DNA from: Vampirovibrionaceae bacterium NZW_1234
Lineage (GTDB): Bacteria > Cyanobacteriota > Vampirovibrionia > Vampirovibrionales > JAGQHJ01
Assembly (NCBI GenBank): GCA_041697335.1
Contig: JBGUGD010000012.1
Span: forward strand, 1 to 64,000
Direction: 5' to 3'
DNA: 64,000 nucleotides
Shown here: positions 4,315 through 64,000 of the stretch, one piece after another
Layout of the letters: every line of letters starts with the position of its first letter
How positions within the stretch are numbered: position 1 is the stretch's first letter
Program-made: the position numbers and the translations under genes
The notes under the pieces: model-generated
Database searches by the model: none
What the model was told of the DNA's origin: nothing
What the model saw: the letters and a program-made list of their open reading frames with translations, nothing else

Positions 4315-6144
4315 CTAAGGTTTGCTGGATGGATATGTGAGTGATAAGCCGTTGCAGCCGCTTAGACGATTTGTAAATTGATCACCCTCGACGGTTTTCA
4401 TGCACGCCAACTGCTTGAGCGGTTGGTTGGAATTGAAGAAAAGTATCGTATCACTGAGGTCCATTCCTTTGGATAGATCTTGGTGGACCAGGTATGACAG
4501 GAAACCTAATATTCGCGCTTGGGCTTTTTTATCCGTCAATTTTTCCAATTCTTCAAGGTGGTCGATAAGAATGACTTTATTCGCAAAAGAGGGTTTATCG
4601 GATACCGTGGGAGTAGGAACTGCGGCACTCAGGAGTTTATCTTCCAAGACCTCCCGGGTCTTCAGCTCACGTAAGTCCAGTGTAATCAGGCTGTTCGGTC
4701 CCATGACTTCATCGGCTAACTTTTGTGCCAAGGGTTTTATGTCACTTCCCCCTTGTGTAACAGCTCTTAATTTATGACCGGGGTTTGATTTTTCGCCGGG
4801 TGGGTATTGTTGCATAGCTTTATAAGATAATATGGTGCTTTGAAGCACTTCCTCTAGATTCTCACTCATATGCATTCCATCGTATCGCAGGGTTTCATCA
4901 ACAGCCCAGCCCTCAGAGAGGCGTTTTGAAATATCAGCCGGATCGATGTGGCGGTAATAGTCGAAGAGTTCTCGTTTGTCGAGAATGTCTTTGATAGAAG
5001 ACTCCAAGGAGACGGAGGACGTGTTGGGATTCGTCGCAACTTCTGTCTTCAGCCGATTATGTAACTGTTCCAAAGCAAGATTTACCTGCCATAGTTTGGC
5101 TTTTTCCTCAGGGTCTAATGGTTTTTTAGAAACAAACAGTGTATTATCATCCATTGTTGCGCCAAAGACACCGAGCGTGGCGAATAAGTTGTTTTTACTG
5201 TAGATTGCAGTTAGCAGCATTCTAAAATAGTCTTGAGTGCGGATATCTGGGAATCTAAGGAATCCGAGTAGCGCTGCGGCTTTGATTTGCGGATGTTCGT
5301 TCTTAAAATATTCTTCGTGAATATTGCGGAGTAACGTATTGAGATGAGGTGTGGATGCTTTTGCCAGTTCTTGTAGGCGAAGAATGGCGGATACTTTCTC
5401 TGGTACAGTGGGTGCTTCTTCAATATCCTTCACCATGATTTCGGCCTGCTTAGCAAAATCAATGGCAATAGTTTTCGTAGGAGTGCTCAGCGTTTTTGAA
5501 TACTGTTCCGGGAACCCCGGGATTTTACTCAGCATTTCCAGAAGCTTTGTCGCTTGAATGCGATTTGTTTTGCTTTTGGCCTGAAGTCCCCTATGGAGGG
5601 CTTTTATTTCGGAATTGGAAAGTGGCAATTTGGGAATGCAGTAGGTCGGGTTGGATGTTTTAATCACATCTTCAATGAAGTCCTGATGTGTTCTGAAACG
5701 CCACTGCAGGTTTGTAACGGTTAGCGTGGGAGGGGAGAGCTTTTTTTCGGCAATGGCATGCAGGTGTTTTCGGATGTAAAGCTCGTTTTTTAGCTGTTTT
5801 AGTCGGTGCTCCAAGCGTGCTTGGGTTGACAGAGGCTTGGGTTGTGGTGGCTTTGAAGACGCTTTGTTTGTGGTTTTGTTGGCTTTTTGCGTGGGCTTGT
5901 TGCCAGTGATTAGATTCCAGAGCCACTGAAAAGGCGAAAATAATTGGGTTAACGCCTGCTTAAGCCAGTTTTTGAGCCGGTCAGAGAGCGAAGGGGGCTT
6001 GGGTTCGCCTGCGGATTTTGATGCGCCAAAGCGAATATCCGGGCCTAGGGTTGCCAAAAGTTGAGTAGGTAAAGTGCTTTTCGAAGTGGCATAACGCGTG
6101 TTTGTTATTCTCGGGGTTACTGGAGAGGGGGCTTCGAGCGGCAT
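4315..6144 (-). CDS. Hypothetical protein with low-complexity IRFG leader and degenerate ClpB-D2-like AAA domain at the C-terminus
   Basis: ORF track 4315..6207; ATG at 6144 has GAGG upstream; C-terminal LAQKLADEVMG..SLITLDL / VILIDHLEE / MDLSDTILFFNSN / FTNRL. Confidence 0.6.
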   Translation of the reverse strand: MPLEAPSPVTPRITNTRYATSKSTLPTQLLATLGPDIRFGASKSAGEPKPPSLSDRLKNWLKQALTQLFSPFQWLWNLITGNKPTQKANKTTNKASSKPPQPKPLSTQARLEHRLKQLKNELYIRKHLHAIAEKKLSPPTLTVTNLQWRFRTHQDFIEDVIKTSNPTYCIPKLPLSNSEIKALHRGLQAKSKTNRIQATKLLEMLSKIPGFPEQYSKTLSTPTKTIAIDFAKQAEIMVKDIEEAPTVPEKVSAILRLQELAKASTPHLNTLLRNIHEEYFKNEHPQIKAAALLGFLRFPDIRTQDYFRMLLTAIYSKNNLFATLGVFGATMDDNTLFVSKKPLDPEEKAKLWQVNLALEQLHNRLKTEVATNPNTSSVSLESSIKDILDKRELFDYYRHIDPADISKRLSEGWAVDETLRYDGMHMSENLEEVLQSTILSYKAMQQYPPGEKSNPGHKLRAVTQGGSDIKPLAQKLADEVMGPNSLITLDLRELKTREVLEDKLLSAAVPTPTVSDKPSFANKVILIDHLEELEKLTDKKAQARILGFLSYLVHQDLSKGMDLSDTILFFNSNQPLKQLACMKTVEGDQFTNRLSGCNGLSLTYPSSKP

Positions 6145-6900
6145 ACACGTAGACCTCGGGTTTTGCTCATCAACTAGGGCAATCATAACAACAACATGCC
6201 AATGCATCTTCCCGATATGTTGCTTGCTTATGAAATGCCCTCAATGTCAAAAATTGCTATGGAGATTTGTCTTTTCAGGAAAACGTCTTTGAATGTCGAG
6301 TGGTTAGCGACAAAACCAGGAATTGCTCGATATTGGGGGGTGAGCCCTTTAACTTTTGTGAAGATGCCCATCAAAACGGGGTTTCAGGCCCTGAATTTGA
6401 AGTTAAGTTTACTTTATGAAATTTTTTGATTCTCTTTAGGGCAGTTGTTACATCTGTTTGCAGAGTGGCAAAAGGCGCTGGGTGCCCCAAAATGGCATCG
6501 GTATATTTTTTATATTAGCTCTCATAATGAAAAGTATGACCGTCAGATCACTAGCAGGCTGAACCAAAAAACGCTAAACTATAAATAGTTGGAAGTGAAT
6601 GAAAGGTGCTACTCCAAACCACCCCGCTGGTGATGGGTGACGTGGTTTGCTTATTTTCGCCGTCGTTTAGGTCATTGAGATAAACGGCTTCCACATGCAT
6701 GGCAATTGAGACGATTAATGGAGGATGATATCGAGAACGGACAATAAATGATGATGATGGTTAGCACGGCCCAATACGGTGTCTGCCCTTGCGAGGGTTG
6801 GGGACTGCTGTAGGGCCGGATGATGATGAACAGGACATGAGACAGTGTCTGCTTCATTTTTAGGTTCGGAACAAATAATACTGAGGAGGACTCACTCGTC

Positions 6901-7065
6901 ATGAAGCAATCCAAGAAAAAATATTCTGCTATTGAGACGACTGGCGGCACCTACAGTGCCCGCAAGGTGCCTCAATGGCGAATTGGAAACAATGAACTCC
7001 TCGAATATCTGGCCGCGTTGGATAAGGATTGGGATGACCTGATCGGGGACTTCAGTCCCGCCTAA
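6901..7065 (+). CDS. Small 54-aa protein MKQSKKKYSAIETTGGTYSARKVPQWRIGNNELLEYLAALDKDWDDLIGDFSPA
   Basis: Translated by hand (below ORF-track cutoff); strong GAGGAGG Shine-Dalgarno just upstream; lies in otherwise non-coding space. Confidence 0.6.
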   Translation: MKQSKKKYSAIETTGGTYSARKVPQWRIGNNELLEYLAALDKDWDDLIGDFSPA

Positions 7066-7296
7066 ATCAGGGTCATTTCCTCCGCTAGGTCTACTTAGTT
7101 AGAGTTTGGTTTTGACCTGTTTTCAGGTTGGTTCTGGCTTTGTTCAAAAAGCCGGACAACGGACTCTGGGTTTTTCATCGAAGCGAGGTGCCTTGTGCGC
7201 CTCGCTTCGACGATTTTAACGGGATCGGAATGTTGATACGTGGCCCAGGCATTCGGCGATTGCGTTTTGGAATAATGTCGTTGCTTTTCGGCTATA

Positions 7297-11626: not shown

Positions 11627-12442
11627 ATGGATATTGCAACAATTGCCGGTTTGTTTCTGGGTATTGCCATTTTAATTGTTTCTTTGGTTATGGGTGGGGT
11701 TCCGGTTCAGACTATCTTTCAGCCTGAGGCATTATTGGTTGTGATGGGCGGCACCTTGACGGCCATGTTGGTCAATTTTTCCGGTCGAGAGCTGCTGTCT
11801 GCGATGCGTGCCATGAACCAGGTCTTTTACCTGGAGGATTTGACCCCTCAGGAGGTCATTGACTATATTTCAGATGCTGCCGTTTATATTCGAACCAAGG
11901 GCCTTTTGGCTGTTCAGCCCCTACTCAACGATATTGACATTCCCTTCTTGCAAAAAGGGCTCCAGATGTTGGTGGATAATACGCCACTGGATCATATGCG
12001 TGCTTTGCTCACCACGGAAATGGAGGTCCAGTATACGACAGACAAACAGCATGCCAAGATTTTTGAGACCGCTGGTGGGTTTGCTCCAACCATGGGGATT
12101 ATTGGAGCCATTGTAGGCTTGGTGCAGATTATGAATATGCTTCATTCCCCTGAGCAATTAGGTCACGGGGTCGCCAGTGCTTTTATTGCCACACTGTATG
12201 GGGTGGGTAGTGCAAACCTGTTCTTCCTGCCCGTGGCCGGAAAACTGCAACACCGAGCCAAACATGCCTGGTTACTGCGTTCCATGATTTTGCAGGGCAT
12301 TTTGGCCATCCGCGAAGGCAAGCACCCGACCCTGATTCGAGAGCAGTTGTCGGCCTATCTGTATGCCAACGACGAAACGGCCGGGGTTGATGAGGGTTAC
12401 GAAGGGTATGACACCCAAAGCGATTTGTATGCGGGGGTGTAG
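11627..12442 (+). CDS. motA: Flagellar stator protein MotA
   Basis: MDIATIAG, PEALLVVMGGT, GGFAPTMGIIGAIVGL, AFIATLYGV..ANLFFLP. Confidence 0.95.
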   Translation: MDIATIAGLFLGIAILIVSLVMGGVPVQTIFQPEALLVVMGGTLTAMLVNFSGRELLSAMRAMNQVFYLEDLTPQEVIDYISDAAVYIRTKGLLAVQPLLNDIDIPFLQKGLQMLVDNTPLDHMRALLTTEMEVQYTTDKQHAKIFETAGGFAPTMGIIGAIVGLVQIMNMLHSPEQLGHGVASAFIATLYGVGSANLFFLPVAGKLQHRAKHAWLLRSMILQGILAIREGKHPTLIREQLSAYLYANDETAGVDEGYEGYDTQSDLYAGV

Positions 12443-12445
12443 CTT

Positions 12446-13225
12446 ATGACTGATGCCCATCCGCTTCGGCAGCTTGAGGAACTCGACGATTCACTGGCTC
12501 AACGTTCAGGCTATACGGGGACGGCTCGCTGGATGATTCCCTATGCCGACTTTATGACGTTGCTGATTGGGTTCTTGATTATTCTCTTTGCCATGGTGAG
12601 CGTTGAAAACCAAAAGCTGAAGAGCGAGTTGGCTAAATCACCCCAGGCTTCGTCCCAGGATTTGACGCAAGCTTCTCACGTGTCTGCCCCTACAAAAACC
12701 GTGTCTTCTGACGAAGCTCATCAGCTGGAGGAGCGTCTGGCCAAGGCGTTTGATCTTAAAGGTCAGCAAGTCACGGTGAGCCAAGACGATCGCGGCTTGG
12801 TCATTTCTTTTCAGGAACGCATTTTTTTTGATCCCGGTGCGGCCGAGCTGACACCCAAAGCCCATAGAACGCTGGATTCATTGGCCAAGGTTTTAGGGAC
12901 CCTACATCAACCAATCAGAGTAGAAGGTCACACGGATAACACACCCATCAAGACCGCAATCTTCCCTTCTAACTGGGAACTTTCAACGGCTCGTGCGACT
13001 CGCATTGTGCGTAGCTTGGTGGAGCGTTATCACCTGTCGCCACAACAGTTGTCTGCCGCAGGCTATGGCGAGTTCTCCCCGCTTTCTGATAATTCCACTA
13101 TTGAAGGGAAACAAAAAAACCGAAGAGTGGATATAGTGATATTAAATCCCTTGCCGACTGGCACGACGCGCGCAGATCGGGTGACGGAATCCTCTGTATC
13201 TCCCTCGCGTCCTCTCAAGGAGTAG
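12446..13225 (+). CDS. motB: Flagellar stator protein MotB
   Basis: WMIPYADFMTLL (conserved Asp); OmpA-like VEGHTDN, NWELSTARA, NRRVDI. Confidence 0.95.
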   Translation: MTDAHPLRQLEELDDSLAQRSGYTGTARWMIPYADFMTLLIGFLIILFAMVSVENQKLKSELAKSPQASSQDLTQASHVSAPTKTVSSDEAHQLEERLAKAFDLKGQQVTVSQDDRGLVISFQERIFFDPGAAELTPKAHRTLDSLAKVLGTLHQPIRVEGHTDNTPIKTAIFPSNWELSTARATRIVRSLVERYHLSPQQLSAAGYGEFSPLSDNSTIEGKQKNRRVDIVILNPLPTGTTRADRVTESSVSPSRPLKE

Positions 13226-13231
13226 ACCTGT

Positions 13232-13879
13232 ATGGCACGCCCTACGCAACCGAAAGAAGCAAAGCCCAAAGCTTTAGAAGCTGTGGAAGATGGAATACCG
13301 GTGTCTTCAAAAGAGCCGAATCCAATGATGAATATTATCATTACTGTGGTCGTGATTGTTCTGTCCACTACCTTGTCTTCGGCCGCATCCATGTATTTTC
13401 TGGCCCCCATCATCATGAAACCGATGCTCAGTAGCTTGGCGCCCAAGGGCGAAGGCGAAGAAGGGGGCGAGGGTGAAGGCGAAGAAGGGGGTGAAAAGGG
13501 AGAGGCAGGAGCCATGCCCACTGTTGGTCCTGTGTTGGCCCTGGATGAATTTACGGTGAACCTGAAAGATGCGGATCGTGAGCGTTATCTTCGGGCCTCG
13601 ATTTCGCTGACGGTGACGGCCAACGATCCGAAGTTCGGAAAACTGGCTGGGGAAGAGGCGAAAAAATGGGAAGAAGAGTTTCACATTGAAATGGGGCCCT
13701 ATGTGCCTGCGGTCCGGGATTTAATTATTTCCGCCTTAACGAAACGCACCGCTGCCGAGTTGTCAACGGCTGTAGGGAAAGAAGAAGTAAAAGACGAAGT
13801 GAAAAAAGGGGTTGATGCCCTGTTTCATGGTGAGCGGAAGGTCATACGGGTTAATCTGGAGAACTTTATCATTCAATAA
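13232..13879 (+). CDS. fliL: Flagellar basal-body protein FliL
   Basis: N-terminal TM, G/E-rich linker, FTVNL...RYLR...VRD.II..L...GKEE.K...FIIQ; lies between motB and fliM. Confidence 0.9.
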   Translation: MARPTQPKEAKPKALEAVEDGIPVSSKEPNPMMNIIITVVVIVLSTTLSSAASMYFLAPIIMKPMLSSLAPKGEGEEGGEGEGEEGGEKGEAGAMPTVGPVLALDEFTVNLKDADRERYLRASISLTVTANDPKFGKLAGEEAKKWEEEFHIEMGPYVPAVRDLIISALTKRTAAELSTAVGKEEVKDEVKKGVDALFHGERKVIRVNLENFIIQ

Positions 13880-13950
13880 CAGGTCGTATTGGTCGATACT
13901 TTGTTGTTCGTTTGTGTGAAGCGTGAGTCGAGAGAATCAGAGGAGCATCC

Positions 13951-15021: not shown

Positions 15022-15036
15022 TCAGGAGATGACGAA

Positions 15037-16410: not shown

Positions 16411-17754
16411 ATGGTCGATTTGCTGCGACGCGTGGCGTCGGGGATGCCGCTGCATGGCGTTTCTGGGAAACGAATCCAAAAGAATACCGGCTTTACTGCA
16501 TCGGGGTTATCTCTGAAACCCTTGGGTCAGGATTCAGTCCGATTCTCTGGGAGCCCGAAACAGGATGCCCAGCTGTTAAAGAAATACGGCATTTCTGTGG
16601 ATGCTGTTCAGACCCAACTACCGGAGGGGGTGAGCCTGTCAAAAGCCGCCAAGCGTCGTCTCATTGTTCAAGCTTTGGAAACATACGAGCATGCGGCTAA
16701 AAAGCGTTTGCTCAATGAACAACTGATCAAAATCAAGCCGGATACCAACCATGTGTCCGGGCGGAACTTTTCTTCGACGGTCGTTTTAGAGAATGGAATC
16801 ACCGCAACCGCCGTCAATTCTGAATTCAGTCGGGATGATATCCTTTGTGGCGAGCGCTCTGGAATTGTTTCTGCCTTGAACCAGGCTATCCATAAAGTGT
16901 CTTTAGAAGCATTGAAGTCCGATCCCCAGGCGTTAGAGACGTTACGTCAGGGGATGAAGGTCAAGCATTTGGTTATGTCTGGCGCGCATCGGCATAAGGG
17001 AGAAAACAGCGCAGATGAATCCAAAGACAGCTTGTCGAGTCCGCCTCCCTGCTCGGATTGCCAGGCCTGGATGAACACCAGTGAATATTTCTCACCGGAC
17101 ACCCAGATAGTTACCCTGGATCGCGCCCTGGGACCTACACCCATCCTACAGATGATGCCCTTGAAAAAAATGCTGCCGTTTTGGAATGATTCTGTCGTCA
17201 GTCGACTTAAACCAACTATAGACACCCAAGAACCTTCCGTTGATGCCATGCCGGTTCAGTTTTCGCCACGGGCTTCGGCCATTCAAGGTCTGGGTATTGA
17301 TGAGGTGCGTGTTAAGGCCCTGGTTAAAAAGGCGAAAGAGGCCTATCAAGCAAACTCACTGGCAGAAGTGTCTCGTAAAAATGCAGCTGTCGCCGCATTG
17401 TTAATGCCTATGAATGAGATTGTTACGGCCACTCGATTTGATATCACGGCGCGTTGGTACAATGACCCTGCTAAAACGGTTTTAGAAAAAGGATTTCGAG
17501 AGATGCAGGAGCGAGGTTTTACGACGAACCCTGAAAAAGGAGCGCAGGCGGTTGCCTTTGCCTTCTATAGTGATTATCCACAACCAACAGTCAATACCTT
17601 GGGGTATCTGGCCCAGCTGGAGCGGGGAAATGGCGCGGATAAGACTCTGATTATCCGTATTGAAGACAATGCGATTCAGGTTAGGACCATCCGAGATATG
17701 ATGCCCGAGGTCTATATGTCGGCTCGGGTGCCTCGCGAAGGTGGGAAATCCTAG
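16411..17754 (+). CDS. Cytidine-deaminase-like protein with two CDA-fold units and a VRFSG leader
   Basis: NSE...CGERSGI (C-x-E) and PPCSDC (PCxxC) zinc motifs; second unit lacks them. Confidence 0.7.
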   Translation: MVDLLRRVASGMPLHGVSGKRIQKNTGFTASGLSLKPLGQDSVRFSGSPKQDAQLLKKYGISVDAVQTQLPEGVSLSKAAKRRLIVQALETYEHAAKKRLLNEQLIKIKPDTNHVSGRNFSSTVVLENGITATAVNSEFSRDDILCGERSGIVSALNQAIHKVSLEALKSDPQALETLRQGMKVKHLVMSGAHRHKGENSADESKDSLSSPPPCSDCQAWMNTSEYFSPDTQIVTLDRALGPTPILQMMPLKKMLPFWNDSVVSRLKPTIDTQEPSVDAMPVQFSPRASAIQGLGIDEVRVKALVKKAKEAYQANSLAEVSRKNAAVAALLMPMNEIVTATRFDITARWYNDPAKTVLEKGFREMQERGFTTNPEKGAQAVAFAFYSDYPQPTVNTLGYLAQLERGNGADKTLIIRIEDNAIQVRTIRDMMPEVYMSARVPREGGKS

Positions 17755-29022: not shown

Positions 29023-29718
29023 TTAATGGTTCTGGTTGTCCGGATTCCAATACAGCCTGTCCACTAAGCCTTCTTTAGCTATTTGTCGTCCTTTTTCTGT
29101 CAGTTTTAGGGTCTTTAGGGAAAAGCTCGATAGGATATAGGGCATGAGAATGTATTCATCGATGAGTCCGACATTGTAAAGCCCTTGTAATGCTTTATAG
29201 ACACTTTTTACTTTAGGCGTAATGCGATAGTCCGGGTCCTGATCCGGAAGCTGTCGGAGTGGGGGATCGGCTATGTCAAGAACAATATCGAGGACAGGCA
29301 CTTCCGGTTCTGGATACTGCGGCTCTTTGGGTGCTCTGGTGAGCTTTTTAAGGAGCCAAAATCGTTCTTCGTAGCGGGAAAGACGTTGGTCATAATGTTC
29401 TTTTGCCCTCTTATAAGCTTCCTCCTGAGCGGGACTGACCTCACCTCTTAGTGCCAGGAAGCTCCGCATCACGATCCAGCCGGTTATGTCCTCGTCGTAA
29501 GATTTTCGAAGTGCTTCAAGAGTGGCTTTTCGATTCTGCAGTGCAGTTGTGCCAAAGGTCACCTCAGTGAAGGGAGGTTTGGCTCCCGTTGCCGAAAGCT
29601 GGCTCACTGTCCCATGCCCATAAGAGAGGTGCTCAGGCCGATAGGGCAGAAAGCTGCGTTGTTGACTTGATAGGGGGATGATTGGTTTTAAGGTTGTTCT
29701 CGACAGGTTTACGTGCAT
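29023..29718 (-). CDS. Hypothetical protein with low-complexity VTFG leader
   Basis: 231-aa ORF; C-terminal LTEKG winged-helix-like tail. Confidence 0.6.
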   Translation of the reverse strand: MHVNLSRTTLKPIIPLSSQQRSFLPYRPEHLSYGHGTVSQLSATGAKPPFTEVTFGTTALQNRKATLEALRKSYDEDITGWIVMRSFLALRGEVSPAQEEAYKRAKEHYDQRLSRYEERFWLLKKLTRAPKEPQYPEPEVPVLDIVLDIADPPLRQLPDQDPDYRITPKVKSVYKALQGLYNVGLIDEYILMPYILSSFSLKTLKLTEKGRQIAKEGLVDRLYWNPDNQNH

Positions 29719-29924: not shown

Positions 29925-30347
29925 TTAGGCCGACAGGTTGATACGCCGTTGATTGGCTAATGCAATCAACGGCTCTACAAATATCGATCGGGCTTTGGGA
30001 CTCAGGGGAAGTTGACTCAAATGGTTGACCAGGAATCGAACCTTCTGACCTGCTGTGTGGTTTTGCGCCCCTGGGCCCGAGAGTTCTTTTTCCAGAATTT
30101 GTCCGTTAACCCGATGTTCAGCATAAAAAACATCCTCTCCGAGACTTTCGTATTCCTGTTCTCGGCGTGTGAATTCCAATACGGGCGAATGAGCAACGAG
30201 TCCGAGCGTCTTTGCTTCTTTGAGAGAATCATCATCCAAAGCTAAGGCAATCACGTGGTCTTTTGTATTTAATGTTCCTGGCACGGGTTGTCCATAATCC
30301 AAGCGATCCAGGTAACCCCGGCCAAAGCGTAGATTCAAAGTCATCAT
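29925..30347 (-). CDS. Hypothetical protein starting MMTLNLRFG
   Basis: 140-aa ORF filling the gap. Confidence 0.55.
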   Translation of the reverse strand: MMTLNLRFGRGYLDRLDYGQPVPGTLNTKDHVIALALDDDSLKEAKTLGLVAHSPVLEFTRREQEYESLGEDVFYAEHRVNGQILEKELSGPGAQNHTAGQKVRFLVNHLSQLPLSPKARSIFVEPLIALANQRRINLSA

Positions 30348-52241: not shown

Positions 52242-53150
52242 ATGAGACCGGAATTATTGCATTCGAAGGAGCGGTCTGAAGGACTGCAAGCCGGAGGGGA
52301 GCCTAAAGGGCTACACCCGAAAGCGCCAGTGGCACAACCTAAGGAACTGGTGTTATTGCAGGGGCCGCAAAATCAACCTCACGCGATACCGGTATTTAAG
52401 CCCGTAAATGGATGGGGTCTTGTGGAAGGCCCAGTTATAGGCCGTCCTGGAATTCCGGCAAGCCCAATGAAACGGGTAGACTTGGATGTGTGTGAGATTA
52501 ATCAAGGAGATACCAATGGGTGTGGCACGACGTCATTAGCCATGTCGTTAAATTGTCTTTCCAATCGGTGTGGCCGAGGCACTCCCTATACTCGAGAACA
52601 ATTGGATTTTAATAACAGGGAGTTGGATTGTTTTAGCTCTCCACTCATGCTGTGTCGTGAGGCGCGTCGGCGTGGGTACCATGCTGAAGCCTATAACAAT
52701 ATGTCTTTTGACGAAGTTCGATACCATCTGGATCGCAATCATCCGGTGATGGCTTTGATTCAGGCGGGTGAAAACTCCCTGCATTATGTGGTCATTCGGG
52801 GCTATGAAGTTGATCCGGCCCATCCCAATGACCTGAGCCGAGCCCGCTACCATATCAGCGATCCTGCTACGGGAAGCAGTCGTTGGCAGTCGGTTGATTC
52901 GTTCCATCAGGAATGGCAAAATCTTCGTTTCAGAGGCTATAACACGCATTTGAATCAGTTTGGGATTGTCCTCTCGGATAAGCCGGATTTGCCGCCCAGC
53001 CGTAGTATTCCTTGGACTGTTTATGCTGCTGATATTGTCAACCGGCTTGTCAATGTCGCCGGGCGAATCAAGCGTGGGTTTGAACAGGTAAAAAATGTGG
53101 CGGTCTCCGTCGCCAAGCGGATTGGTCGATTCTTTCGTTCGCTTTTCTGA
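52242..53150 (+). CDS. C39-like cysteine peptidase
   Basis: QGDTNGCGTTSLAM, LHYVVIRGY, SDPA (Cys-His-Asp). Confidence 0.8.
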   Translation: MRPELLHSKERSEGLQAGGEPKGLHPKAPVAQPKELVLLQGPQNQPHAIPVFKPVNGWGLVEGPVIGRPGIPASPMKRVDLDVCEINQGDTNGCGTTSLAMSLNCLSNRCGRGTPYTREQLDFNNRELDCFSSPLMLCREARRRGYHAEAYNNMSFDEVRYHLDRNHPVMALIQAGENSLHYVVIRGYEVDPAHPNDLSRARYHISDPATGSSRWQSVDSFHQEWQNLRFRGYNTHLNQFGIVLSDKPDLPPSRSIPWTVYAADIVNRLVNVAGRIKRGFEQVKNVAVSVAKRIGRFFRSLF

Positions 53151-53260: not shown

Positions 53261-55651
53261 ATGAACGTCTTTTTATCCAAGTTGTCCTTTACACCCGATG
53301 ACTTTCAGCTACAGGCGATGGAGGCTATTGCTGAGGGCCATAGCGTTGTGGTCTGCTCACCTACAGGGAGTGGTAAGACGTTAATTGCTGAATTCGCTGC
53401 TCATGAAGCTGTGGAAGGTGGGCGAAAGATATTCTATACGACGCCGCTCAAAGCCCTGAGCAACCAGAAGTTTCAAGATTTTAAAAAAACGTATGGGGAG
53501 GCTACGGTTGGGCTTTTGACCGGGGATACATCCATTAACCGCGAGGCCCAGATTGTTGTGATGACCACGGAAGTGTTTCGCAACATGCTCTATGGGATTC
53601 AGGAAGACAGTCGCCTGTTACGTCAGGTAAGCTGTGTGGTCTTGGATGAATGCCACTTTATGAATGATGCTGAGCGGGGCACGGTATGGGAAGAAAGTAT
53701 TATTTATTGCCCCGATACCATTCAAATCATTGCTCTGAGCGCCACGGTAGCGAACGCGCTAGAGCTGACAGACTGGATTAATGAAGTTCATCATAATACC
53801 GTTTTGGTTTCCAGTGATTTTCGTCCGGTGCCTTTACGTCACTTCTACTTCAACCGAGAAGAGCTGATGCCGCTGTATAAAACCGGCACCAACCAGTTGA
53901 ATTCGAAGTTGAAATTTGATAATCGGGGCAAGAAGCTGGCAAAAAACATACGGGCCTTTGATCCGAATAAGTTGATTCTGGAGTTGGATCGGCGGGATAT
54001 GCTGCCAGCTATCTTTTTCACCTTTAGTCGCAAGGGCTGCGATAAAAATCTCTTTGAGACCCGAAACATCTCCTTGCTGACACCCGATGAAAAGCGACGT
54101 TTGTCTGAAGAGATTGATGCGTATGTAAAGACTCACCCCTTTTTAGAGGGCAATCGGCATCTTCGGCCCATGTATAACGGCTTTGCTAGCCACCATGCGG
54201 GCCTGTTGCCAGCGCTGAAGGGTCTGGTTGAGGCATTATTTCAAAAAGGCTTGATTAAAGTCGTCTTTGCCACCGAGACGCTTGCTGCTGGTATTAATAT
54301 GCCCGCTCGTACGACGGTGATTACCTCTATTTCCAAACGCACAAACGATGGACACCGCCTTTTAACGGCAAGTGAGTTTCTGCAAATGTCGGGCCGTGCC
54401 GGTCGGCGCGGTATGGATGACGTGGGCTATGTCGTGACGGTCAGCTCCCCCTATGAAAGTGCCTATGATGTTGCTTTATTGGCGAGCAGCCCTCCAGACC
54501 CCCTGAACAGTCGGTTCACGCCTACCTATGGGATGGTTTTAAACCTGTTGCAAAAGCATACCCTGGAGGAGGCCGAGTTTCTGATTTCTAAGAGCTTTGG
54601 TGCATTCACGTCGGAGCGCTGTTTGGAGCCCTTGCGGAAAGATATCGAGGCAACCACGATGGAACTTCAGGGAGCGCTATCGTTTGAATGTCCCTATGGG
54701 TTGGTGGATAAAGACTTTCATAGCTATATGCGCTCCAAGGAGATGCTCAAAGAGACGCATAAAATTATCAAAATCTACAAATCTCAGCTCAAACGCCATG
54801 GCAATAGTGCGGACTTGCGTGCTGCGCTTACCAAAGAAGAGGGAAAACGTGATTCGCTGGTCAAAACGGTTCATGGGCTCCCTTGTTACACGTGTGATAT
54901 TTATAACGAGCATACTCGCCTGGAAGATAAGGTCTATCGCTACCAGCGCAAACTGAAACAGTTGAATCGAGAATTCGAGGCCAGACACAATATCTATTGG
55001 CGCCAGTTTTCCAACCATTACAACCTGTTGAAGGAAGTTGGCTTCTTGGATGAGAAAGACATGCCGACGCCCGAAGGGAAAATGACGGCCCAGATCCGGG
55101 CGGAAAACGAATTTTACATGACTCAGATTGTCTTAAATGGCCTGTTCTCAGATTTGACACCCCCTCAGTTGGCTGCAATGGTCTGTAGTGTGGTCAACGA
55201 TTCAACCCGGGACAATCAGTATTCCAGGCTTTTTGTTTCTTCTGAGGTTCGCTCCCGACTGACGGATGTCCAAAAATTGATCAAGCAGATCCACCAGCTT
55301 CAAAAGAAACATGAGATTGATACGCCCATGAATATGAATCCTGTGGCCTCAGGGCTGGTTGAAGCCTGGGCGGACGGGGCGCAGTGGGGCCATTTGATTG
55401 GCTCGACCAATATTGATGAGGGAGATCTGGTCCGCATTGTGCGTCGAACAGCTGATATTCTGCGCCAGCTCTGTCGTTTAGATGGCATTGACTCAGTATT
55501 GGCTGATACGGCCCATTTGGCCTTAAAAGGTCTTTACCGGGATCCGATTCGTGAGGAAGCATTGGAGCCGGAAGAGGAGCCGCCAACACAACTCTTTGCC
55601 GATGAACCGGAGGAATTGGCCGAAGAGCCAGTGCCGGTTGAAGAGTCGTAA
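53261..55651 (+). CDS. Ski2/HelY-like DExH RNA helicase
   Basis: PTGSGKT, PLKALSNQK, DECH, LSAT, HHAGL, ATETLAAGINMPA, QMSGRAGRRG, DEGDLVR. Confidence 0.93.
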   Translation: MNVFLSKLSFTPDDFQLQAMEAIAEGHSVVVCSPTGSGKTLIAEFAAHEAVEGGRKIFYTTPLKALSNQKFQDFKKTYGEATVGLLTGDTSINREAQIVVMTTEVFRNMLYGIQEDSRLLRQVSCVVLDECHFMNDAERGTVWEESIIYCPDTIQIIALSATVANALELTDWINEVHHNTVLVSSDFRPVPLRHFYFNREELMPLYKTGTNQLNSKLKFDNRGKKLAKNIRAFDPNKLILELDRRDMLPAIFFTFSRKGCDKNLFETRNISLLTPDEKRRLSEEIDAYVKTHPFLEGNRHLRPMYNGFASHHAGLLPALKGLVEALFQKGLIKVVFATETLAAGINMPARTTVITSISKRTNDGHRLLTASEFLQMSGRAGRRGMDDVGYVVTVSSPYESAYDVALLASSPPDPLNSRFTPTYGMVLNLLQKHTLEEAEFLISKSFGAFTSERCLEPLRKDIEATTMELQGALSFECPYGLVDKDFHSYMRSKEMLKETHKIIKIYKSQLKRHGNSADLRAALTKEEGKRDSLVKTVHGLPCYTCDIYNEHTRLEDKVYRYQRKLKQLNREFEARHNIYWRQFSNHYNLLKEVGFLDEKDMPTPEGKMTAQIRAENEFYMTQIVLNGLFSDLTPPQLAAMVCSVVNDSTRDNQYSRLFVSSEVRSRLTDVQKLIKQIHQLQKKHEIDTPMNMNPVASGLVEAWADGAQWGHLIGSTNIDEGDLVRIVRRTADILRQLCRLDGIDSVLADTAHLALKGLYRDPIREEALEPEEEPPTQLFADEPEELAEEPVPVEES

Positions 55652-58864: not shown

Positions 58865-61800
58865 CTAGTTCCCAGAAGGGCCCGTAGTGACGGCGTCAAC
58901 GGCGCGAAAGTATTGGGCAAACTCTTCGAACGTCAGTGTTATTTTGGCGGATTTCATGACCCCATCGTAGTTATGGGGATTAATCAGAGTTATGGTTCTT
59001 GTCTTAGGATCTATTGACTCCACGGTAAAGGCGTGTCGTCCCGGGATTTTACCCTCCGGATCCAAAGTGACCCGATCGCTGGTGCCTTTACTGGATGCCG
59101 TAATATTAAATTTTTGAAGTTCTGCCGGGCTCATTGCGCCGAGTTCTTCCAGGTTGGCAATCAGTTGGGCCTTATTAAACTCCTGAATACGCTGAAGATT
59201 TGCCGCCGCTTTTTGTCGCAGCGCGGCGAGTTCATCCGGTTTTTCCGACCCGGTGTAGCTGATCGGATCCGATTTGGGTCGCGGTAGGTTGATCTTGAAC
59301 TTATATGGGGTTCCGCCGGTCATGCGTTGCAGTGCCACTCCCGGATCGCCGCTTTCCATAATGATTAACGTATCTGTGGAGCTGGCCGTAGAAAGGCGGT
59401 GTTGTTCCACTTCTTTGAGGAGTCTTCCATAGGCCCGTTCCAAAATACTGATCCCCGGGTTACCCATATCTTGGGCCAAGCGTTTTTCGCCTTGGCTTTT
59501 ATGCTTTCCATCGGCTTCCACAAAGATTTTATAAGGTTCTCCCGTTTTCGGGTTGATTTCTCCAGGGAAGGTTACTTCATAGCCGCGTCGTCCTCCGGGT
59601 TCGTTCACCGGTTTGATTAACGACCGTAAGTGATCAATCCCGCCAGGCTTCTTGGCAATTGCACCAATGGCGGCCAGGACATAACAGTCTCCCGTATTAC
59701 CCTGTTGAAAGATCAGGCCTTCATGGCTGGGGAAAAGTTTTTCCGGGCTCAGCACGGGGGGCTGACTGGGGGAGGCGGGTCTGGTGGTCAGACGAGCCAG
59801 GCGATCATTGACATCTGCGCCCACGTCTTTCGTGGGTGTGAGTGCTTCCAGTAATTCGTATAACTGCTTTTCCGCCACGAGCGTCTTTGCAGCATCGCTG
59901 TCTGGGTGCAAGGTTTTTAATGCTGCCTGGCGTTTGGCAATTTCACCTTGTAATGCTTGTGGTTCCATAGGCATACCCACAAGCTCGCCATAGGCTTTTA
60001 TGGCCCGGGTGGTTTTATTGATGTCCCCATTGGCATTGTCCAGCGCTTTGTTCAGGCTTTCAACCACGGTTTTTAATTCCAGGGGTTTATCACCGGGGTT
60101 GAATTTCAAATCCAGTTCCTTCAGGGCGTCAGCCTGTTTCGGTGTTGGACGGATACTGTTTTTAACGGGTAGGGCCTGGAATAATTTAATGGCGACGGTT
60201 TGCCAGGCCAAGGTTTTCAAGGCTTCGGGAGAGGTCGATTCGGAAAAGATTTTATTGAGCCTCTGATTTAATGGGATCTGACTGTTGCTTGGGTAAATGA
60301 CTTCGGTGAGGAGGGCTGCTCCCAAGTTTGAGCCGAAGAGGGAGTTGGCTTGCGTTGCGGAGCCCATCAAGAATTTACTGATGACATGGTTGGGGACCGC
60401 TTTATTGACGCCGTTTATTGTAATTCGCTGAAATCCAGGAAGCAGGCCTCTGCTATTAGCGATGTTGGCAATCCCGCCAATGGCCTTGTTGCCAATGGCG
60501 CCAATCACCGGCATCAACGCTCCCTGCAGGGCGCCTTGGATGCCTGCTCCAAGGGTTGATTGCTGCAGTTGATCCGTTACATTTTTTAATTCAGGATGGG
60601 CGCGACCCACACCGTCAACATAGCGATTGGTTGCGTCGGTGGTGAGACTATTGGTTATGGCCATCTGGGTTCCGAAAACCAGACTTTTGGTGCCCATTTC
60701 TTTTAAGGCTGAGCCCGTAATGCCTTGGACCACACTGCCCCCTCCTGTTGCATAGAGCGGTAAGCTTTGGATAAACGTTACAGTATGAATAAAATCGCTG
60801 ATAAGTTTTTGTTGCCCTTTTAGCATGGCAATAATTTTAGGATCTTTACCTTCGCCTGGGCTTTTGACGTACTTATCAATTTCCTGGAGCAGCTCTTTGG
60901 CAATGGCGTAGGTTTTCGGCAGGTCCTTTGCCTGTCGGGCCTCATCCAGTTTTTGCCGAAGTTCGACCAATTTTCGGCTTTCCTGGACAGCCTTACTGTA
61001 ATTGGAATTGAACAGGACATTTAAGCCCACTTGCAGCTTGGTGGGGGTGGTTGCTCCCCAAGAGTGGGAGCCCTTGAGATCGCCCACTTGATGCTTTTCC
61101 AAGGCGCGATTCACTGCCGCATCATTGACGTTGAGGGCTTGGGTCACATTGTTTTCCCCATGGATATCGGCCAGCATCTGCATCAACTGGTCTACGGCCT
61201 CACCCAAACTGTCAAACTTTCGAAGTTCTTCTTCGGGTGTTTTCGCCACCAAGGCCAGTTTTTCAACCCGATCATCCCGAGTTTGGTTGGCTGCGTTTAA
61301 CCCATTCTTGAGGCGAGCCAGGTGTTGTTCTTTTTGTAAACGCAGTTTATCTTCCAATGCCATGAGTTCGGCAATGGTTTGAATGTCCGATGTGTCGGTA
61401 TCTTGAATCTGCTGGCTTACGTCCTTGATGAGTTTGTCCCAGTCCGCAGTGGCTTGAGCAATTGTTTGTTCTGCCCGAGCATTATCGGTTGCTTCAAGTG
61501 CCAATTTAAGTTCTTGCTTTAAGGGGCCGCCCAAGGAGTCTTGTTTCTCTGTCAGTGCTTTGACCTTTTTCTTTAAGGCTTCCTGGGCTTGGGCTTCTTC
61601 TTTTTGCAAGGCGGACAGTTTCTCCACCAGATTGTTGGGTAAGCCTTTGAGTTCATGAAACGTGGCAACAAGACCGTTAATTTGACGGACTCGGTCTTGA
61701 CGCTTGGGATCGGCATTGAATTGTTGATACAGCGCCTCAATTTCGCGATTGATTTGAGCGCTGGCGTCCAGGCTTTTCTTGAGTGGAGCAATGACCTCTG

Positions 61801-63124
61801 GGGAAAGATTATTGATGCTGACCGCATCTGGGATGGGTCTTGTTGCAATGTCGGAAGCACGTTCTTGAAAGCCTTGCTTGATTTGGCTGAGCGAGGGTTG
61901 CTTTCGTTTCTTTTCGGCTTTTTCGGCTTGTGCCGCTTCTGCACGACGCGCTTCCTCGGCTTCCACGGACGCTAATTTTTTTTCGGCCTCTTCCAGCGAC
62001 ATGCCCAGTTTTTGCTCCAATTTGCTTCGCATAGCGTTCAGGGTCTTTTGAGCGTCTGTATTGACGTTACCCATCTCTTGCATGATATTTGGGGCAATTT
62101 GGTTCTGGCTGATGTCATCGAGAATGGCCTTTAAGGTGGGGCGACCTTGAATATCGTTATTGGCGCCTTCCATATCGTTTTGAATCAGTGTTTCCAGCGT
62201 GGTTCCTGGCGGCGCTTGCTGATTTTTTATGGCATCCTTCAACTCCGTCAGGCGGGATTCCACTTGTTGTACTTGTGCCGGGTTCAGGGTGACTTCTACG
62301 CCATTGGGGAGCATAATAGCCTTCTGAGGGCTGTTGTCCCAATTCGAGACCAAGTCCTGTAATGCCGGATTGACCAGATAGTTGGCTACATCCATTTGTG
62401 TTCGGGCGGTAATCAACGCGTTAACATCATCTTGGGTGTTTAAAAAACCGTCATTCTGTTTGATGATTTTTTCCAGCTCTTGAAAGCGGGTGGTGAGTTG
62501 TCGAAATTTGGCACGGTTTTTAAGTGCGTTCGGCCCTTCACTGAATAACCGTTTAACCCGATCGATGGGATTGTCCGGCACCGCGCTGATCAGATCATCC
62601 ACGTCTGATTGCAGGGATTTGGGCGGGTTGGCCTCCGGGTCCAGACCCTGTTGCAAGAGGCCCATGATGGCTGTTAAATCCCGAAGTCTCCCCATGGCAC
62701 GATAGGCGCCCCATTCAGGGCCAATATCCTGAGCGTCTACGGGGACACCTTTGACGGCATTGGCATCCAGATTCACGGGAGGCACATTGCCTGGAGGTGG
62801 TAATGGATCAGGGAGGGGCAGGGGCATTGCAATGCCTGTAGCCGGATTGATTGACAGTGGTCCCATCGGAGGCTGTTGCAGCCCTGGTCGTGCTGCAGCA
62901 AACCGTTGGGGGGCACCCGGCGTATTCTGTGGGATGCCCATCATATTATTAAATTGGGGTAATTCGCTCGTGGAGGTCACCGGCAAGGGTGTTTGTAGAG
63001 AGGCTGGCGCTGTCATACCCTGACGTTTCGCCGCAAATCCATTGGCCGGAACACCACTCAATGGTGTTGTCGGTAGCGGATTATTTCCGTTTGGAGTCAC
63101 CATAGCACTGCCATACCCACGCAC
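58865..63124 (-). CDS. 1419-aa protein: Pro-rich N-terminus, coiled coils, Gly-rich hydrophobic region, C-terminal calpain-like (peptidase C2) domain
   Basis: QQGNTGDCYVLAAI, LERAYG, GD...AL..MTG, RHAFTV, LINPH. Confidence 0.85.
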   Translation of the reverse strand: MRGYGSAMVTPNGNNPLPTTPLSGVPANGFAAKRQGMTAPASLQTPLPVTSTSELPQFNNMMGIPQNTPGAPQRFAAARPGLQQPPMGPLSINPATGIAMPLPLPDPLPPPGNVPPVNLDANAVKGVPVDAQDIGPEWGAYRAMGRLRDLTAIMGLLQQGLDPEANPPKSLQSDVDDLISAVPDNPIDRVKRLFSEGPNALKNRAKFRQLTTRFQELEKIIKQNDGFLNTQDDVNALITARTQMDVANYLVNPALQDLVSNWDNSPQKAIMLPNGVEVTLNPAQVQQVESRLTELKDAIKNQQAPPGTTLETLIQNDMEGANNDIQGRPTLKAILDDISQNQIAPNIMQEMGNVNTDAQKTLNAMRSKLEQKLGMSLEEAEKKLASVEAEEARRAEAAQAEKAEKKRKQPSLSQIKQGFQERASDIATRPIPDAVSINNLSPEVIAPLKKSLDASAQINREIEALYQQFNADPKRQDRVRQINGLVATFHELKGLPNNLVEKLSALQKEEAQAQEALKKKVKALTEKQDSLGGPLKQELKLALEATDNARAEQTIAQATADWDKLIKDVSQQIQDTDTSDIQTIAELMALEDKLRLQKEQHLARLKNGLNAANQTRDDRVEKLALVAKTPEEELRKFDSLGEAVDQLMQMLADIHGENNVTQALNVNDAAVNRALEKHQVGDLKGSHSWGATTPTKLQVGLNVLFNSNYSKAVQESRKLVELRQKLDEARQAKDLPKTYAIAKELLQEIDKYVKSPGEGKDPKIIAMLKGQQKLISDFIHTVTFIQSLPLYATGGGSVVQGITGSALKEMGTKSLVFGTQMAITNSLTTDATNRYVDGVGRAHPELKNVTDQLQQSTLGAGIQGALQGALMPVIGAIGNKAIGGIANIANSRGLLPGFQRITINGVNKAVPNHVISKFLMGSATQANSLFGSNLGAALLTEVIYPSNSQIPLNQRLNKIFSESTSPEALKTLAWQTVAIKLFQALPVKNSIRPTPKQADALKELDLKFNPGDKPLELKTVVESLNKALDNANGDINKTTRAIKAYGELVGMPMEPQALQGEIAKRQAALKTLHPDSDAAKTLVAEKQLYELLEALTPTKDVGADVNDRLARLTTRPASPSQPPVLSPEKLFPSHEGLIFQQGNTGDCYVLAAIGAIAKKPGGIDHLRSLIKPVNEPGGRRGYEVTFPGEINPKTGEPYKIFVEADGKHKSQGEKRLAQDMGNPGISILERAYGRLLKEVEQHRLSTASSTDTLIIMESGDPGVALQRMTGGTPYKFKINLPRPKSDPISYTGSEKPDELAALRQKAAANLQRIQEFNKAQLIANLEELGAMSPAELQKFNITASSKGTSDRVTLDPEGKIPGRHAFTVESIDPKTRTITLINPHNYDGVMKSAKITLTFEEFAQYFRAVDAVTTGPSGN

Positions 63125-63250: not shown

Positions 63251-63270
63251 CACACAAATTCGAGAATAGA

Positions 63271-63675
63271 CTAGCGAACCCGGTTCGGGGTAACCCATTC
63301 GTCCCAGGACTTCTCATAGCCTTCGTAGTGGATGAAATAAGTGTCTTTACCAACACTGACAATGGTGGCAGGGTACCATTTATCTTGCCAGAGCACTTCA
63401 ACTTTATTGCCAACACGCCATTTGGGGGCCGCATGGGTAATCCGGATGCGATCCCCCTTTACCCATTCGTCCCAGGACTTATCATACCCTTCGTAATGGA
63501 TGTAGCATTGGGTTTTATCCGGGCTAACGTCCTGGACAGTGGCTTTATACCAATTGTTCTGCCACAAGACCTCAGCTTCATCGCCGATTCGGCACAGCTC
63601 GGCATAGGCCGACGAAACACACATCCAAACCGTAAACAATGCCATGAAAAGACTGGCTTTAAGGCGGGGTATCAT
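63271..63675 (-). CDS. Exported protein with two tandem Agenet/Tudor-knot-like domains
   Basis: Signal peptide ending SSAYA; two repeats G..[AV]EVLW...WY.AT......IHYEGY..SWDEWV...R.R; AAGGAG RBS before ATG 63675. Confidence 0.85.
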   Translation of the reverse strand: MIPRLKASLFMALFTVWMCVSSAYAELCRIGDEAEVLWQNNWYKATVQDVSPDKTQCYIHYEGYDKSWDEWVKGDRIRITHAAPKWRVGNKVEVLWQDKWYPATIVSVGKDTYFIHYEGYEKSWDEWVTPNRVR

Positions 63676-63834
63676 TGTGCAAGCTCCTTCATAAAACACC
63701 AACCCGGGTATTGATTCAGTCTAACAATGGTATACGCAAAGGGGCAAGCCCTTGGCTGAATCCTGTTTGAAGCAATTTGTCTTTTGGAGATGTTTTTTGT
63801 GAATATCACCCAGAGACTAACTTGGAGTCGGCCG

Positions 63835-64000
63835 GTGCCCATTTCCATCACCCCACAGCCTATGCATCGAATACCCCTTGTGCCGCGGGTCAGGGTTGCA
63901 CAACCTTCTGCTGTTCGCTTTTCCTCGGATTCCGGTATCTTTCGGGACTGGATGAATGGGTACTCCGTTAATGCCGAACGCCTGGAACGGGAAAAACACA
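63835..64000 (+). CDS. Partial ORF running off the window, with AVRFSS leader
   Basis: GTG with GGAG upstream; hand translation MPISITPQPMHRIPLVPRVRVAQPSAVRFSSDSGIFRDWMNGYSVNAERLEREKH, no stop. Confidence 0.55.
   Translation, partial: MPISITPQPMHRIPLVPRVRVAQPSAVRFSSDSGIFRDWMNGYSVNAERLEREKH

Follow-up and report, generated by a model that had tools for sequence, protein, structure and literature searches.

The window analysed here is the first 64 kb (64,000 nucleotides) of contig C4 in the genome of Vampirovibrionaceae bacterium NZW_1234 (G000), a member of the non-photosynthetic sister class of cyanobacteria. It holds core genes (dnaA, yidC, fliL/fliM/fliN-like genes, motA/motB, ETF, a beta-oxidation and phenylacetate cluster, and ftsE/ftsX), and interspersed among them are open reading frames (ORFs) that a first-pass annotation had flagged for a shared N-terminal pattern, [IVL]-[RT]-F-[GS]. 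We found that a short N-terminal motif with an R-F-G core (the RFG motif) is carried by about 230 to 290 proteins of this genome (8 to 10% of predicted ORFs), four to six of them encoded in the window. The genome comprises 3.70 Mb in 41 contigs and is 94.75% complete, and 2,898 ORFs were called with a crude codon-usage caller at 80% coding density. All motif counts and residue numbers rest on these crude calls; because the caller takes longest-ORF starts, residue numbers count from the longest ORF and start positions are uncertain. The motif was scored with a 10-residue matrix (consensus S-S-[V/I/L/P]-R-F-[G>S,A]-[S/G/A]) that was trained on the same N-termini later counted, with internal windows and shuffles as controls, and that is blind to motifs in the first four residues. 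We distinguish 112 strict carriers from 232 matrix carriers (at least 12 bits within the first 90 residues). The six peptides quoted by the first-pass annotation are all present in the sequence, and the features of the window that bear on the motif are as follows (aa, amino acids).

4315..6207, minus strand: carrier ORF without a Pfam family, 630 aa when read from the longest start; motif IRFG (DIRFGA) at 6025-6036, residue 58 (37 from the start used in the first-pass annotation), score 14.2
6240..6257, minus strand: promoter-like bipartite element GCAATTT-N6-TTGAG, 33-50 nt upstream of the longest start of carrier 4315-6207; fixed-pattern match
16411..17754, plus strand: carrier ORF, 447 aa, two-domain, with a predicted cytidine-deaminase fold; motif VRFS (SVRFSG) at 16537-16548, residues 43-46, score 16.7
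29023..29718, minus strand: orphan ORF, 231 aa, with the weak variant VTFG (EVTFGT) at 29551-29562, score 5.9; doubtful member
29925..30347, minus strand: carrier ORF, 140 aa, no Pfam family; motif LRFG (NLRFGR) at 30321-30332, residues 6-9, score 11.7
58865..63124, minus strand: 1419-aa ORF with the weak match QRFAA at 62894-62908, score 5.3; doubtful member
63772..63789, plus strand: promoter-like element GCAATTT-N6-TTGGAG, overlapping the earliest candidate start codon of carrier 63784; fixed-pattern match
63784..64000, plus strand: 5' portion of a carrier ORF that has no Pfam family, measures 376 aa from the longest start and ends at contig position 64914 beyond the window; motif VRFS (AVRFSS) at 63913-63924, score 18.1

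Of the six instances proposed as members, DIRFGA, SVRFSG, AVRFSS and NLRFGR therefore stood, whereas EVTFGT and QRFAA are weak; among shuffled N-termini, 4.3% score at least 6, 1.2% at least 10 and 0.5% at least 12. None of the other 48 ORFs scored on the contig (46 of them in the window) reaches a matrix score of 8. The AVRFSS ORF has possible starts at 63784, 63835 and 63862. Since the promoter-like element overlaps the first of these, the real start is probably GTG 63835 or ATG 63862, which places the motif at residue 27 or 18 and favours the later start that the first-pass annotation had used.

Within the window, five matches to the original pattern [IVL][RT]F[GS] fall among residues 1-80 of the 53 called ORFs, compared with 0.55 expected (Poisson p = 2.7e-4; the composition-based expectation is 1.3e-4 per residue). 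Genome-wide, the bins of residues 1-20, 21-40, 41-60 and 61-80 contain 55, 36, 28 and 16 matches to the same pattern, each against an expectation of about 7.5, and past residue 80 it was at or slightly under expectation, with 92 matches compared with about 99. When about 7,900 tripeptides were surveyed without bias, RFG ranked first for N-terminal enrichment (193 occurrences within residues 1-80 versus 159 elsewhere, p = 2e-37), followed by PRF, LRF and VRF. The motif is enriched over the shuffled and internal controls that the annotation had proposed: 232 of 2898 N-termini (8%) reach at least 12 bits, compared with 4 of 2031 equal-length internal windows and 9 of 2898 shuffled N-termini, and at a threshold of at least 10 bits the numbers are 283, 13 and 30.

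These counts also refined the pattern. Its enrichment near N-termini holds across the genome, but T at the second core position is not clearly enriched ([IVL]TFG 13 vs 16; [IVL]TFS 6 vs 28), and the pattern omitted two residues that belong to it, since P is as frequent as V, I or L before the R and A is tolerated after the F. The refined core, [V/I/L/P]-R-F-[G>S,A], has Ser-rich positions ahead of it and S, G or A after it. Arg occupies core position 2 in 271 of 295 sites, and the residue before it is P, V, I or L, not R.

The signal lies in the peptide. In the first 240 nt of ORFs, DNA coding for [IVL]RFG was found 90 times in frame versus 12 and 8 times in the other phases, while in the remainder of the ORFs the phases are alike (24, 36 and 29). 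Arg codons at the motif are mixed (33 CGA, 76 CGC, 37 CGG and 50 CGT), with AGR rare (7 seen, 20 expected); Gly codons are likewise mixed (29 GGA, 51 GGC, 23 GGG and 25 GGT), and for Phe, TTT is favoured over TTC (167 vs 36, with 136 vs 67 expected). The frame test and the mixed codons together rule out a DNA-level motif or an untranslated leader. Common ancestry of the carriers was ruled out as well, as the 112 strict carriers fall into 107 BLAST components and the 232 matrix carriers into 205 families; the claim that unrelated proteins share the motif was therefore borne out.

The motif lies anywhere from residue 3 to about residue 80, one per protein as a rule, and may come directly after the start, as in MH-LRFG. 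Its distance from the start ranges from 2 to about 70 residues, and from 2 to about 60 where the start is supported by a Shine-Dalgarno sequence. Hence the idea that the motif ends a leader holds for ORF 16411-17754, where it closes a disordered leader, but not for proteins in which it sits at residue 3. Tandem copies are not in excess (3 of 288 vs 2.4 expected), counting only motifs beyond the first four residues, which the matrix can score. Carriers are found on all large contigs and are mildly clustered, with 42 adjacent pairs compared with 18.4 +/- 3.8 expected from 1,000 permutations. The disordered stretch that holds the motif precedes the first folded element by about 8-25 residues. Overall, the RFG motif is a translated and selected N-terminal short linear motif, located in a disordered segment, on mutually unrelated proteins.

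The absence of a Sec signal, as first described for the window, was confirmed on a larger scale. With a hydrophobic segment defined as a 17-mer of Kyte-Doolittle (KD) value of at least 1.9, such a segment occurs within 70 residues after the motif in 8 of 232 carriers, compared with 522 of 2588 non-carriers when their first 100 residues are considered (p = 6e-13), and before the motif in 5 of 232 carriers. A membrane-like segment anywhere in the protein was seen in 16 of 232 carriers versus 537 of 2588 non-carriers. All six window proteins lack a hydrophobic N-terminal segment (maximum 17-mer at most 0.93). The leaders of the 232 carriers are also acid-poor and rich in Pro, Ser, Thr and Arg, as had been noted: the residues before the motif comprise 11.6% S, 8.7% P, 2.8% D and 2.0% E, compared with 6.3, 5.5, 5.1 and 5.8% in the proteome.

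The cargo was examined through families and folds, with a Pfam family accepted at E <= 1e-5. None of the six window proteins has a Pfam family at this threshold, the EVTFGT orphan (29023-29718) has zero homologues among 5.8 billion proteins of similar length, and a Protein Data Bank sequence search with three window carriers returned nothing useful. For ORF 16411-17754, Pfam and sequence searches gave no match and the fold was seen by structure instead. Its AlphaFold model (pTM 0.72) matched cytidine deaminases in Foldseek with a probability of 1.00 and a target TM-score of up to 0.78; pLDDT is below 50 for residues 1-47, which include the motif at 43-46, and the fold begins at residue 49. In an alignment of 11 members of this family, CxE and PCxxC are invariant, as are C146, E138, C214 and C217. 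CxE and PCxxC are the zinc-ligand motifs of the cytidine deaminase superfamily, and the modelled fold together with these residues assigns the cargo to that superfamily. The window cargo had been called effector-like on the strength of a deaminase, a protease and a dead AAA protein. The deaminase is upheld by its predicted fold, but the protease amounts to a weak calpain-like match of the 1419-aa ORF at the catalytic-Cys region near residue 1145 (Peptidase_C2, E = 0.036, under the family cut-off), and the AAA match of ORF 4315-6207, at E = 0.15, is unconfirmed.

Across the genome, we compared 144 proteins from 20 windows picked for carrier density, a biased sample that held 55 of the 112 strict carriers, 23 proteins with a looser RF[GSA] match and 66 random motif-less neighbours. 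No Pfam family was assigned to 35 of the 55 strict carriers, 11 of the 23 looser ones and 24 of the 66 neighbours (strict vs neighbours p = 0.0035). Among assigned carriers were FtsH-like AAA/M41 proteins, a 1088-aa M16 peptidase, ClpB-like AAA proteins, endonuclease/exonuclease/phosphatase and alpha/beta hydrolase proteins, EF-hand and HEAT proteins, PrkA, DUF444, an adenosine deaminase and a nucleotidyl transferase. Carriers further include extra copies of malate/lactate, isocitrate and aldehyde dehydrogenases and of enoyl-CoA hydratase, with the motif on an N-terminal extension as it also is in the adenosine deaminase and in the FtsH-like and M16 peptidases, and a DeoC-like aldolase whose identity was read by eye from its sequence; for most enzyme carriers, untagged paralogues are present in the same genome. 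Strict matches in chorismate synthase and ribosomal protein L14, where they are internal, and in a 2-epimerase, where they lie on a doubtful upstream extension, probably arose by chance. At C5:195785-205961 (locus L202:786-10962), a five-gene run encodes PrkA, SpoVR, DUF444 (YeaH-like), a second PrkA-like protein and a 426-aa ClpP-like protein with a 100-residue extension, and all five genes have an RF[GSA] match near the N-terminus.

Conserved genes rarely carry the motif. Among the 1,054 genes that are best hits of ORFs from samples of five relatives, 15 (1.4%) are carriers, versus 8.0% of all ORFs (p = 3e-21), a depletion of about 6-fold. Conversely, in the relatives, 12 of 37 carriers have a homologue in the NZW_1234 genome, compared with 1061 of 1540 non-carriers. 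The carriers are accessory, lineage-specific and fast-evolving genes. The description of the set as orphan and non-core was thus right in its main trend, but it did not cover the extra metabolic and housekeeping-type enzymes that are also tagged.

Where orthologues could be followed, the motif outlasted its surroundings. For malate dehydrogenase, the tagged protein and the five homologues nearest to it (74-47% identity, 347-380 aa) have LRFG, LRFG, LQFG, LRFG, VKFGG and PRFG+TRFGG, located 8-20 residues ahead of the Rossmann strand, whereas typical homologues of 308-309 aa start at the strand without the extension. Of the 11 deaminase-family members, 8 retain [V/I/L/P]-[R/Q]-F, although their leaders cannot be aligned outside it. 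M16 orthologues have VRFG, LFQG, VMFG, MLFG and LLFG at the same position, so that the invariant core would be hydrophobic-x-F-G, with Arg a preference of the NZW_1234 lineage. Retention of the motif in orthologues whose leaders otherwise diverge points to selection on the motif itself.

To follow the motif through the order, N-termini of relatives were scored on samples of 200-400 kb per genome, and gene-family searches covered 31 genomes. Compared with 8.0% of ORFs in the NZW_1234 genome, N-terminal matrix hits were found in 14 of 284 ORFs of G023 (family f2, genus g19), 10 of 225 of G003 (family f1, to which NZW_1234 itself belongs), 7 of 374 of G020 and 5 of 352 of G024 (both family f3), none of these four samples having an internal match, and in 1 of 342 of G005 (f2, genus g6), where internal windows gave 1 of 232. 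The motif system is order-wide, being present in all three families, and very unequal in size; it is apparently missing in genus g6, of which one genome was sampled. Because the matrix was trained on the NZW_1234 genome, it undercounts Arg-less variants in the other families. A whole-genome DNA pattern, TCNVTNCGNTTYGGN, was tried as a motif index in the 31 genomes and proved too noisy, with most genomes at the level of the backwards-read control; counts of TCNVTNCGNTTYGGN against that control were 35 vs 11 in G000, 25 vs 11 in G023 and 24 vs 16 in G003. Contigs C1 and C2 of G008 (125 and 74 kb; loci L135-L145) have an NZW_1234 homologue at E < 1e-10 for 7 of 211 ORFs, versus 60-77% for other relatives. 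They are probably plasmids, phage or mis-binned DNA, and as these contigs are probably not chromosomal, the G008 sample is uninformative.

Some carriers also share an upstream DNA element. GCAATTT occurs within 200 nt upstream of 34 of 231 carriers, compared with 78 of 2647 other genes (p = 1e-12). Alignment of the sites revealed a two-part element, (A)GGCAATTT-N6-TTGAGG-N4-TTTATTG, situated 50-130 nt ahead of the longest ORF start; its GGCAAT and TTTATT are about 17 nt apart, a spacing shared with promoters of the sigma-70 family. Sixteen genes are preceded by the fixed pattern GCAATTT-N4-8-T[TG]GA[GT], and 11 of these genes are carriers (odds ratio 26, p = 2e-9), whereas the opposite-strand control gave 5 genes. 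Of the five non-carrier genes with the element, several have Arg-less F-G variants near the start (PAFGY, PAFGS and GMGFGA). Both window copies precede carriers; alone this is not significant, as 13 of 100 shuffles give at least two matches. An iterated DNA matrix drifted to a generic A/T-rich pattern (222 genes, 48 carriers, 86 on the opposite strand), and the fixed pattern was used instead. Part of the carrier set thus appears to be co-regulated by a candidate promoter class. The Synechocystis SigF promoter has TAGGC at -32 and GGTAA at -12 (PMC2532724); a likeness was rejected, with only AGGCA at the upstream box in common and a different downstream box.

We hypothesize that the RFG motif is a docking tag that routes signal-peptide-less, fast-evolving and enzyme-rich proteins into a non-Sec export or delivery pathway, a reading to which we assign a probability of roughly 45%. 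We favour it because of the mutual exclusion with signal peptides, the effector-like domain repertoire and the turnover of the set. A receptor, which could be a secretion-system component, a chaperone or a coupling protein, would bind the PHI-R-F-G core (PHI being a hydrophobic residue). The tagged arsenal of proteases, nucleases/phosphatases, deaminases, lipase-like hydrolases and extra metabolic enzymes would then work outside the cytoplasm. Action in prey is conceivable because of the predatory habit of a cultured member of the order, which preys on Chlorella (PMC4451040).

As for the route, one of two flagellar-type type III export gates is a candidate; it would be the only N-terminal-signal system found, and it is not specific to motif-bearing genomes. 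The NZW_1234 genome has two complete gates (C2:99188-101164 and C32:11558-13534), with two FlhA (FHIPEP), two FliP and two FliI. One of the two clusters also holds FliE/FliF/FliH and rod genes, and motA/motB/fliL/fliM/fliN-like genes lie at 11627-16113 in the window. In flagellar cluster 2, an SLT-domain protein without a Sec signal, which we presume to exit via the type III gate by analogy with rod-cap muramidases, starts ...FTRFSAG. Its orthologues have TKFSAG (G003), TLFGLSG (G024) and PLFESGG (G023), with nothing similar in G005 or G020.

Several observations weigh against export. Two FlhA paralogues (about 850-890 and 670-716 bits) were found in 31 of 31 genomes, including motif-poor g6, so FlhA does not discriminate motif-bearing genomes; this pair is constant while N-terminal motif frequency varies from 8.0% to 0.3% across six genomes. 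VirB4, TssC and a phage-type sheath were not found in the NZW_1234 genome, at its 94.75% completeness, and phyletic searches of the 31 genomes linked no machinery to the motif. Some carriers resemble cytoplasmic or inner-membrane housekeeping proteins, including FtsH-like proteases with the motif ahead of the first membrane segment, and the sole Obg-like GTPase in the ORF set carries the motif on a 24-residue extension. The distance between motif and start is more variable than is usual for type III signals, about 9 of the 232 matrix carriers are expected by chance, and the promoter-like element lies upstream of only about 5-15% of carriers. In the small samples from relatives, a link of that element to carriers was not established (G003, 4/10 vs 24/215; G020, 3/7 vs 42/367; G023, 1/14; G024, 1/5).

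Other candidate partners were also rejected. VirB4-type type IV secretion ATPases are confined to genus g20 (G024 and G026, 2-3 copies each) among the 31 genomes searched, and therefore show no complementary pattern with the motif. C39_2-like peptidases failed as a universal partner: G000 has 7 matches, whereas motif-bearing genomes other than G000 have 0-2, with a single match in G003 and zero in G020, G023 and G024. The tagged 1088-aa M16 peptidase failed too: its orthologues (37-47% identity) occur only in G003, G012, G020, G022 and G028, and none was found in G023 or genus g20. We also observed a 12-member stand-alone C39-like family (52203-53150 of the window, plus strand, and 11 paralogues) that often adjoins carriers and is nearly confined to the NZW_1234 genome among the 31. 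In many of its members, the N-terminal part is a long low-complexity stretch in which Gly, Phe, Pro, Met and Asn abound (e.g. GFGMNPGWG repeats).

Known N-terminal signals resemble the RFG motif in part. Type III signals lie within roughly the first 20-25 residues and lack a strict consensus; they are disordered, rich in Ser, poor in acidic residues and not cleaved, and early flagellar subunits have an F-x-x-x-PHI gate-recognition motif. RFG leaders are likewise N-terminal, disordered, Ser-rich and acid-poor with a short Phe motif, and an export apparatus is present in the genome. However, the RFG motif has a consensus, spreads past residue 25 and has no F-x-x-x-PHI after the F, and the gates are found in motif-poor genomes too. 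The Tat signal, S/T-R-R-x-F-L-K with two arginines and a hydrophobic stretch after the motif, is likewise bacterial and N-terminal, and its consensus contains Ser, Arg and Phe and singles out a defined set of proteins for non-Sec transport. In contrast, the RFG motif has a single Arg, replaced by M, L, Q or K in orthologues, and a hydrophobic stretch follows it in just those 8 of 232 carriers; nor do RFG carriers have the hydrophobic core of Sec or lipoprotein signals, which spans some 10-20 residues and lies within roughly the first 40. Double-glycine leaders, which are cleaved and exported by C39 peptidase-ABC exporters, are acidic and amphipathic (LSxxELxxIxGG) and occur on small peptides. 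A non-hydrophobic leader ending in G-[G/A/S] and the abundance of C39-like domains in the genome recall them, but RFG leaders are acid-poor (2.8% D, 2.0% E), conserve F-G and not G-G, and precede cargo of 90-1400 aa. Moreover, the C39-like proteins seen in this genome, in which no search was aimed at C39-ABC fusions, are stand-alone and do not track the motif. MIX, a longer N-terminal domain tied to type VI secretion, is found on polymorphic effectors with diverse toxic domains and is thus also a shared N-terminal marker on diverse proteins, whereas the RFG motif is short and no TssC or sheath was found.

The closest likeness in scale is eukaryotic. PEXEL in Plasmodium and RxLR in oomycetes are host-targeting motifs that follow a classical endoplasmic reticulum signal peptide, and PEXEL is cleaved by a known protease. 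Like them, the RFG motif comprises 4-5 residues within the first 100 or so, on hundreds of unrelated, fast-evolving, lineage-specific proteins that make up several percent of the proteome. Unlike them, it is bacterial, differs in sequence and lacks an upstream signal peptide, given a hydrophobic 17-mer before the motif in only 5 of 232 carriers. In titles and abstracts on secretion, effectors or an RFG motif in Vampirovibrio, Vampirovibrionales and Melainabacteria, we found no description of such a tag, and in the literature searched we found no bacterial parallel for a consensus-bearing, non-hydrophobic N-terminal signal on 8% of a proteome. The RFG motif is classed here as a putative N-terminal linear sorting motif, and it may belong to a new pathway altogether. 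As a bolder and more tentative proposal, which we think has the odds somewhat against it, the order would possess its own, previously undescribed sorting pathway with a hydrophobic-R-F-G core and no hydrophobic signal on up to 8-10% of the proteome, a dedicated promoter class and a role in export or injection into prey, a bacterial counterpart of PEXEL/RxLR. Its substrates, in this joint proposal, would be rapidly turning-over hydrolases, deaminases and spare metabolic enzymes.

If the motif is not for export, it may be a degron or a site of processing, where an endopeptidase would cut within or beside PHI-R-F-G and free a pro-peptide or expose a destabilising residue (Phe, if the cut falls after Arg), so that a regulon is matured or destroyed within the cell. 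The small residues after the core (G, then S/G/A) are as at many peptidase sites, the rule of one motif per protein and its position just ahead of the folded domain would fit cleavage, and candidate peptidases are many, including the motif-bearing M16 enzyme, itself encoded amid carriers, and the 12 C39-like paralogues adjoining carriers. A cytoplasmic process would also make the housekeeping-type carriers easier to accept. However, removal of a leader is pointless where the motif sits at residues 3-6, as in MH-LRFG, neither the C39_2 nor the M16 family tracks the motif, and a degron predicts neither the exclusion of membrane proteins nor the excess of lineage-specific orphans. We therefore consider processing unlikely, though well short of negligible.

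A similarly low standing is given to cytoplasmic docking, in which the motif would co-localise enzymes without export by binding an intracellular hub, whether a chaperone or scaffold, an organelle for polarity or attachment, or a low-complexity condensate. A short linear element in a disordered region at a variable distance from the start is typical of docking motifs, and metabolic isoenzymes (malate, isocitrate and aldehyde dehydrogenases, enoyl-CoA hydratase, adenosine deaminase and the DeoC-like aldolase) are in the set. The Gly/Phe/Pro/Met-rich low-complexity regions fused to the C39-like domain would offer a condensate. Yet no partner was identified, that low-complexity family is nearly confined to one genome whereas the motif is order-wide, and the carriers' rapid turnover and excess of orphans are more easily explained if they act externally than if they form a metabolic assembly.

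Far less probable is a eukaryote-type organelle transit peptide that acts after delivery into algal or protist prey, with R-F|G as a processing site of the R-2 type known from the R-2 rule of mitochondrial presequence processing. The likeness that had been noted to transit peptides extends to composition only, the leaders being acid-poor and rich in Ser, Thr, Pro and Arg, and several tagged enzymes are of kinds that work in organelles. However, a bacterial export step would still be required, many leaders before the motif have 2-10 residues and are too short, and nothing in the data shows eukaryotic prey for this lineage, so the algal-prey idea found no support here; the Chlorella predation described for the cultured relative (PMC4451040) is a point in its favour. 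An origin by chance, by faulty gene calling or from a DNA-level signal, in which wrongly extended ORFs run through a conserved untranslated element or the pattern was picked post hoc, can be dismissed. In its favour, the pattern was defined after being seen, ORF starts are the longest possible, TTT is preferred and AGR is rare. Against it, the motif is in frame (90 vs 12 and 8) with mixed R and G codons, ranks first as RFG in a blind tripeptide scan, is kept in independently predicted homologues down to 47% identity and is infrequent in internal and shuffled controls.

Several other genes in the window deserve mention in their own right. A 143-aa protein at 63271-63702 (minus strand) has two Tudor-knot/Agenet-like domains, which are eukaryote-type chromatin-reader folds, a signal-like hydrophobic N-terminus (KD 1.72) and no RFG motif. 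The 1081-aa ORF at 377-3622 (plus strand) has no Pfam family, was rejected by the codon-usage caller and has a low GC content of 0.37-0.41, whereas the remainder of the window is at about 0.50; a foreign origin is possible. The gene at 53261-55651 (plus strand) encodes a Ski2-like helicase with a DSHCT domain and that at 36312-37088 (minus strand) an AIM24-family protein, both from families better known in eukaryotes and archaea.

If the RFG motif is an export or delivery signal, a single regular expression would list the full effector repertoire of these poorly known, largely uncultured relatives of cyanobacteria. Effector sets would become comparable between genomes, and the leader peptide could serve as bait for a secretion route that homology has missed. 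If the motif is instead a degron or a docking motif, it would still be a regulatory device on the scale of a proteome, and one that is directly testable.

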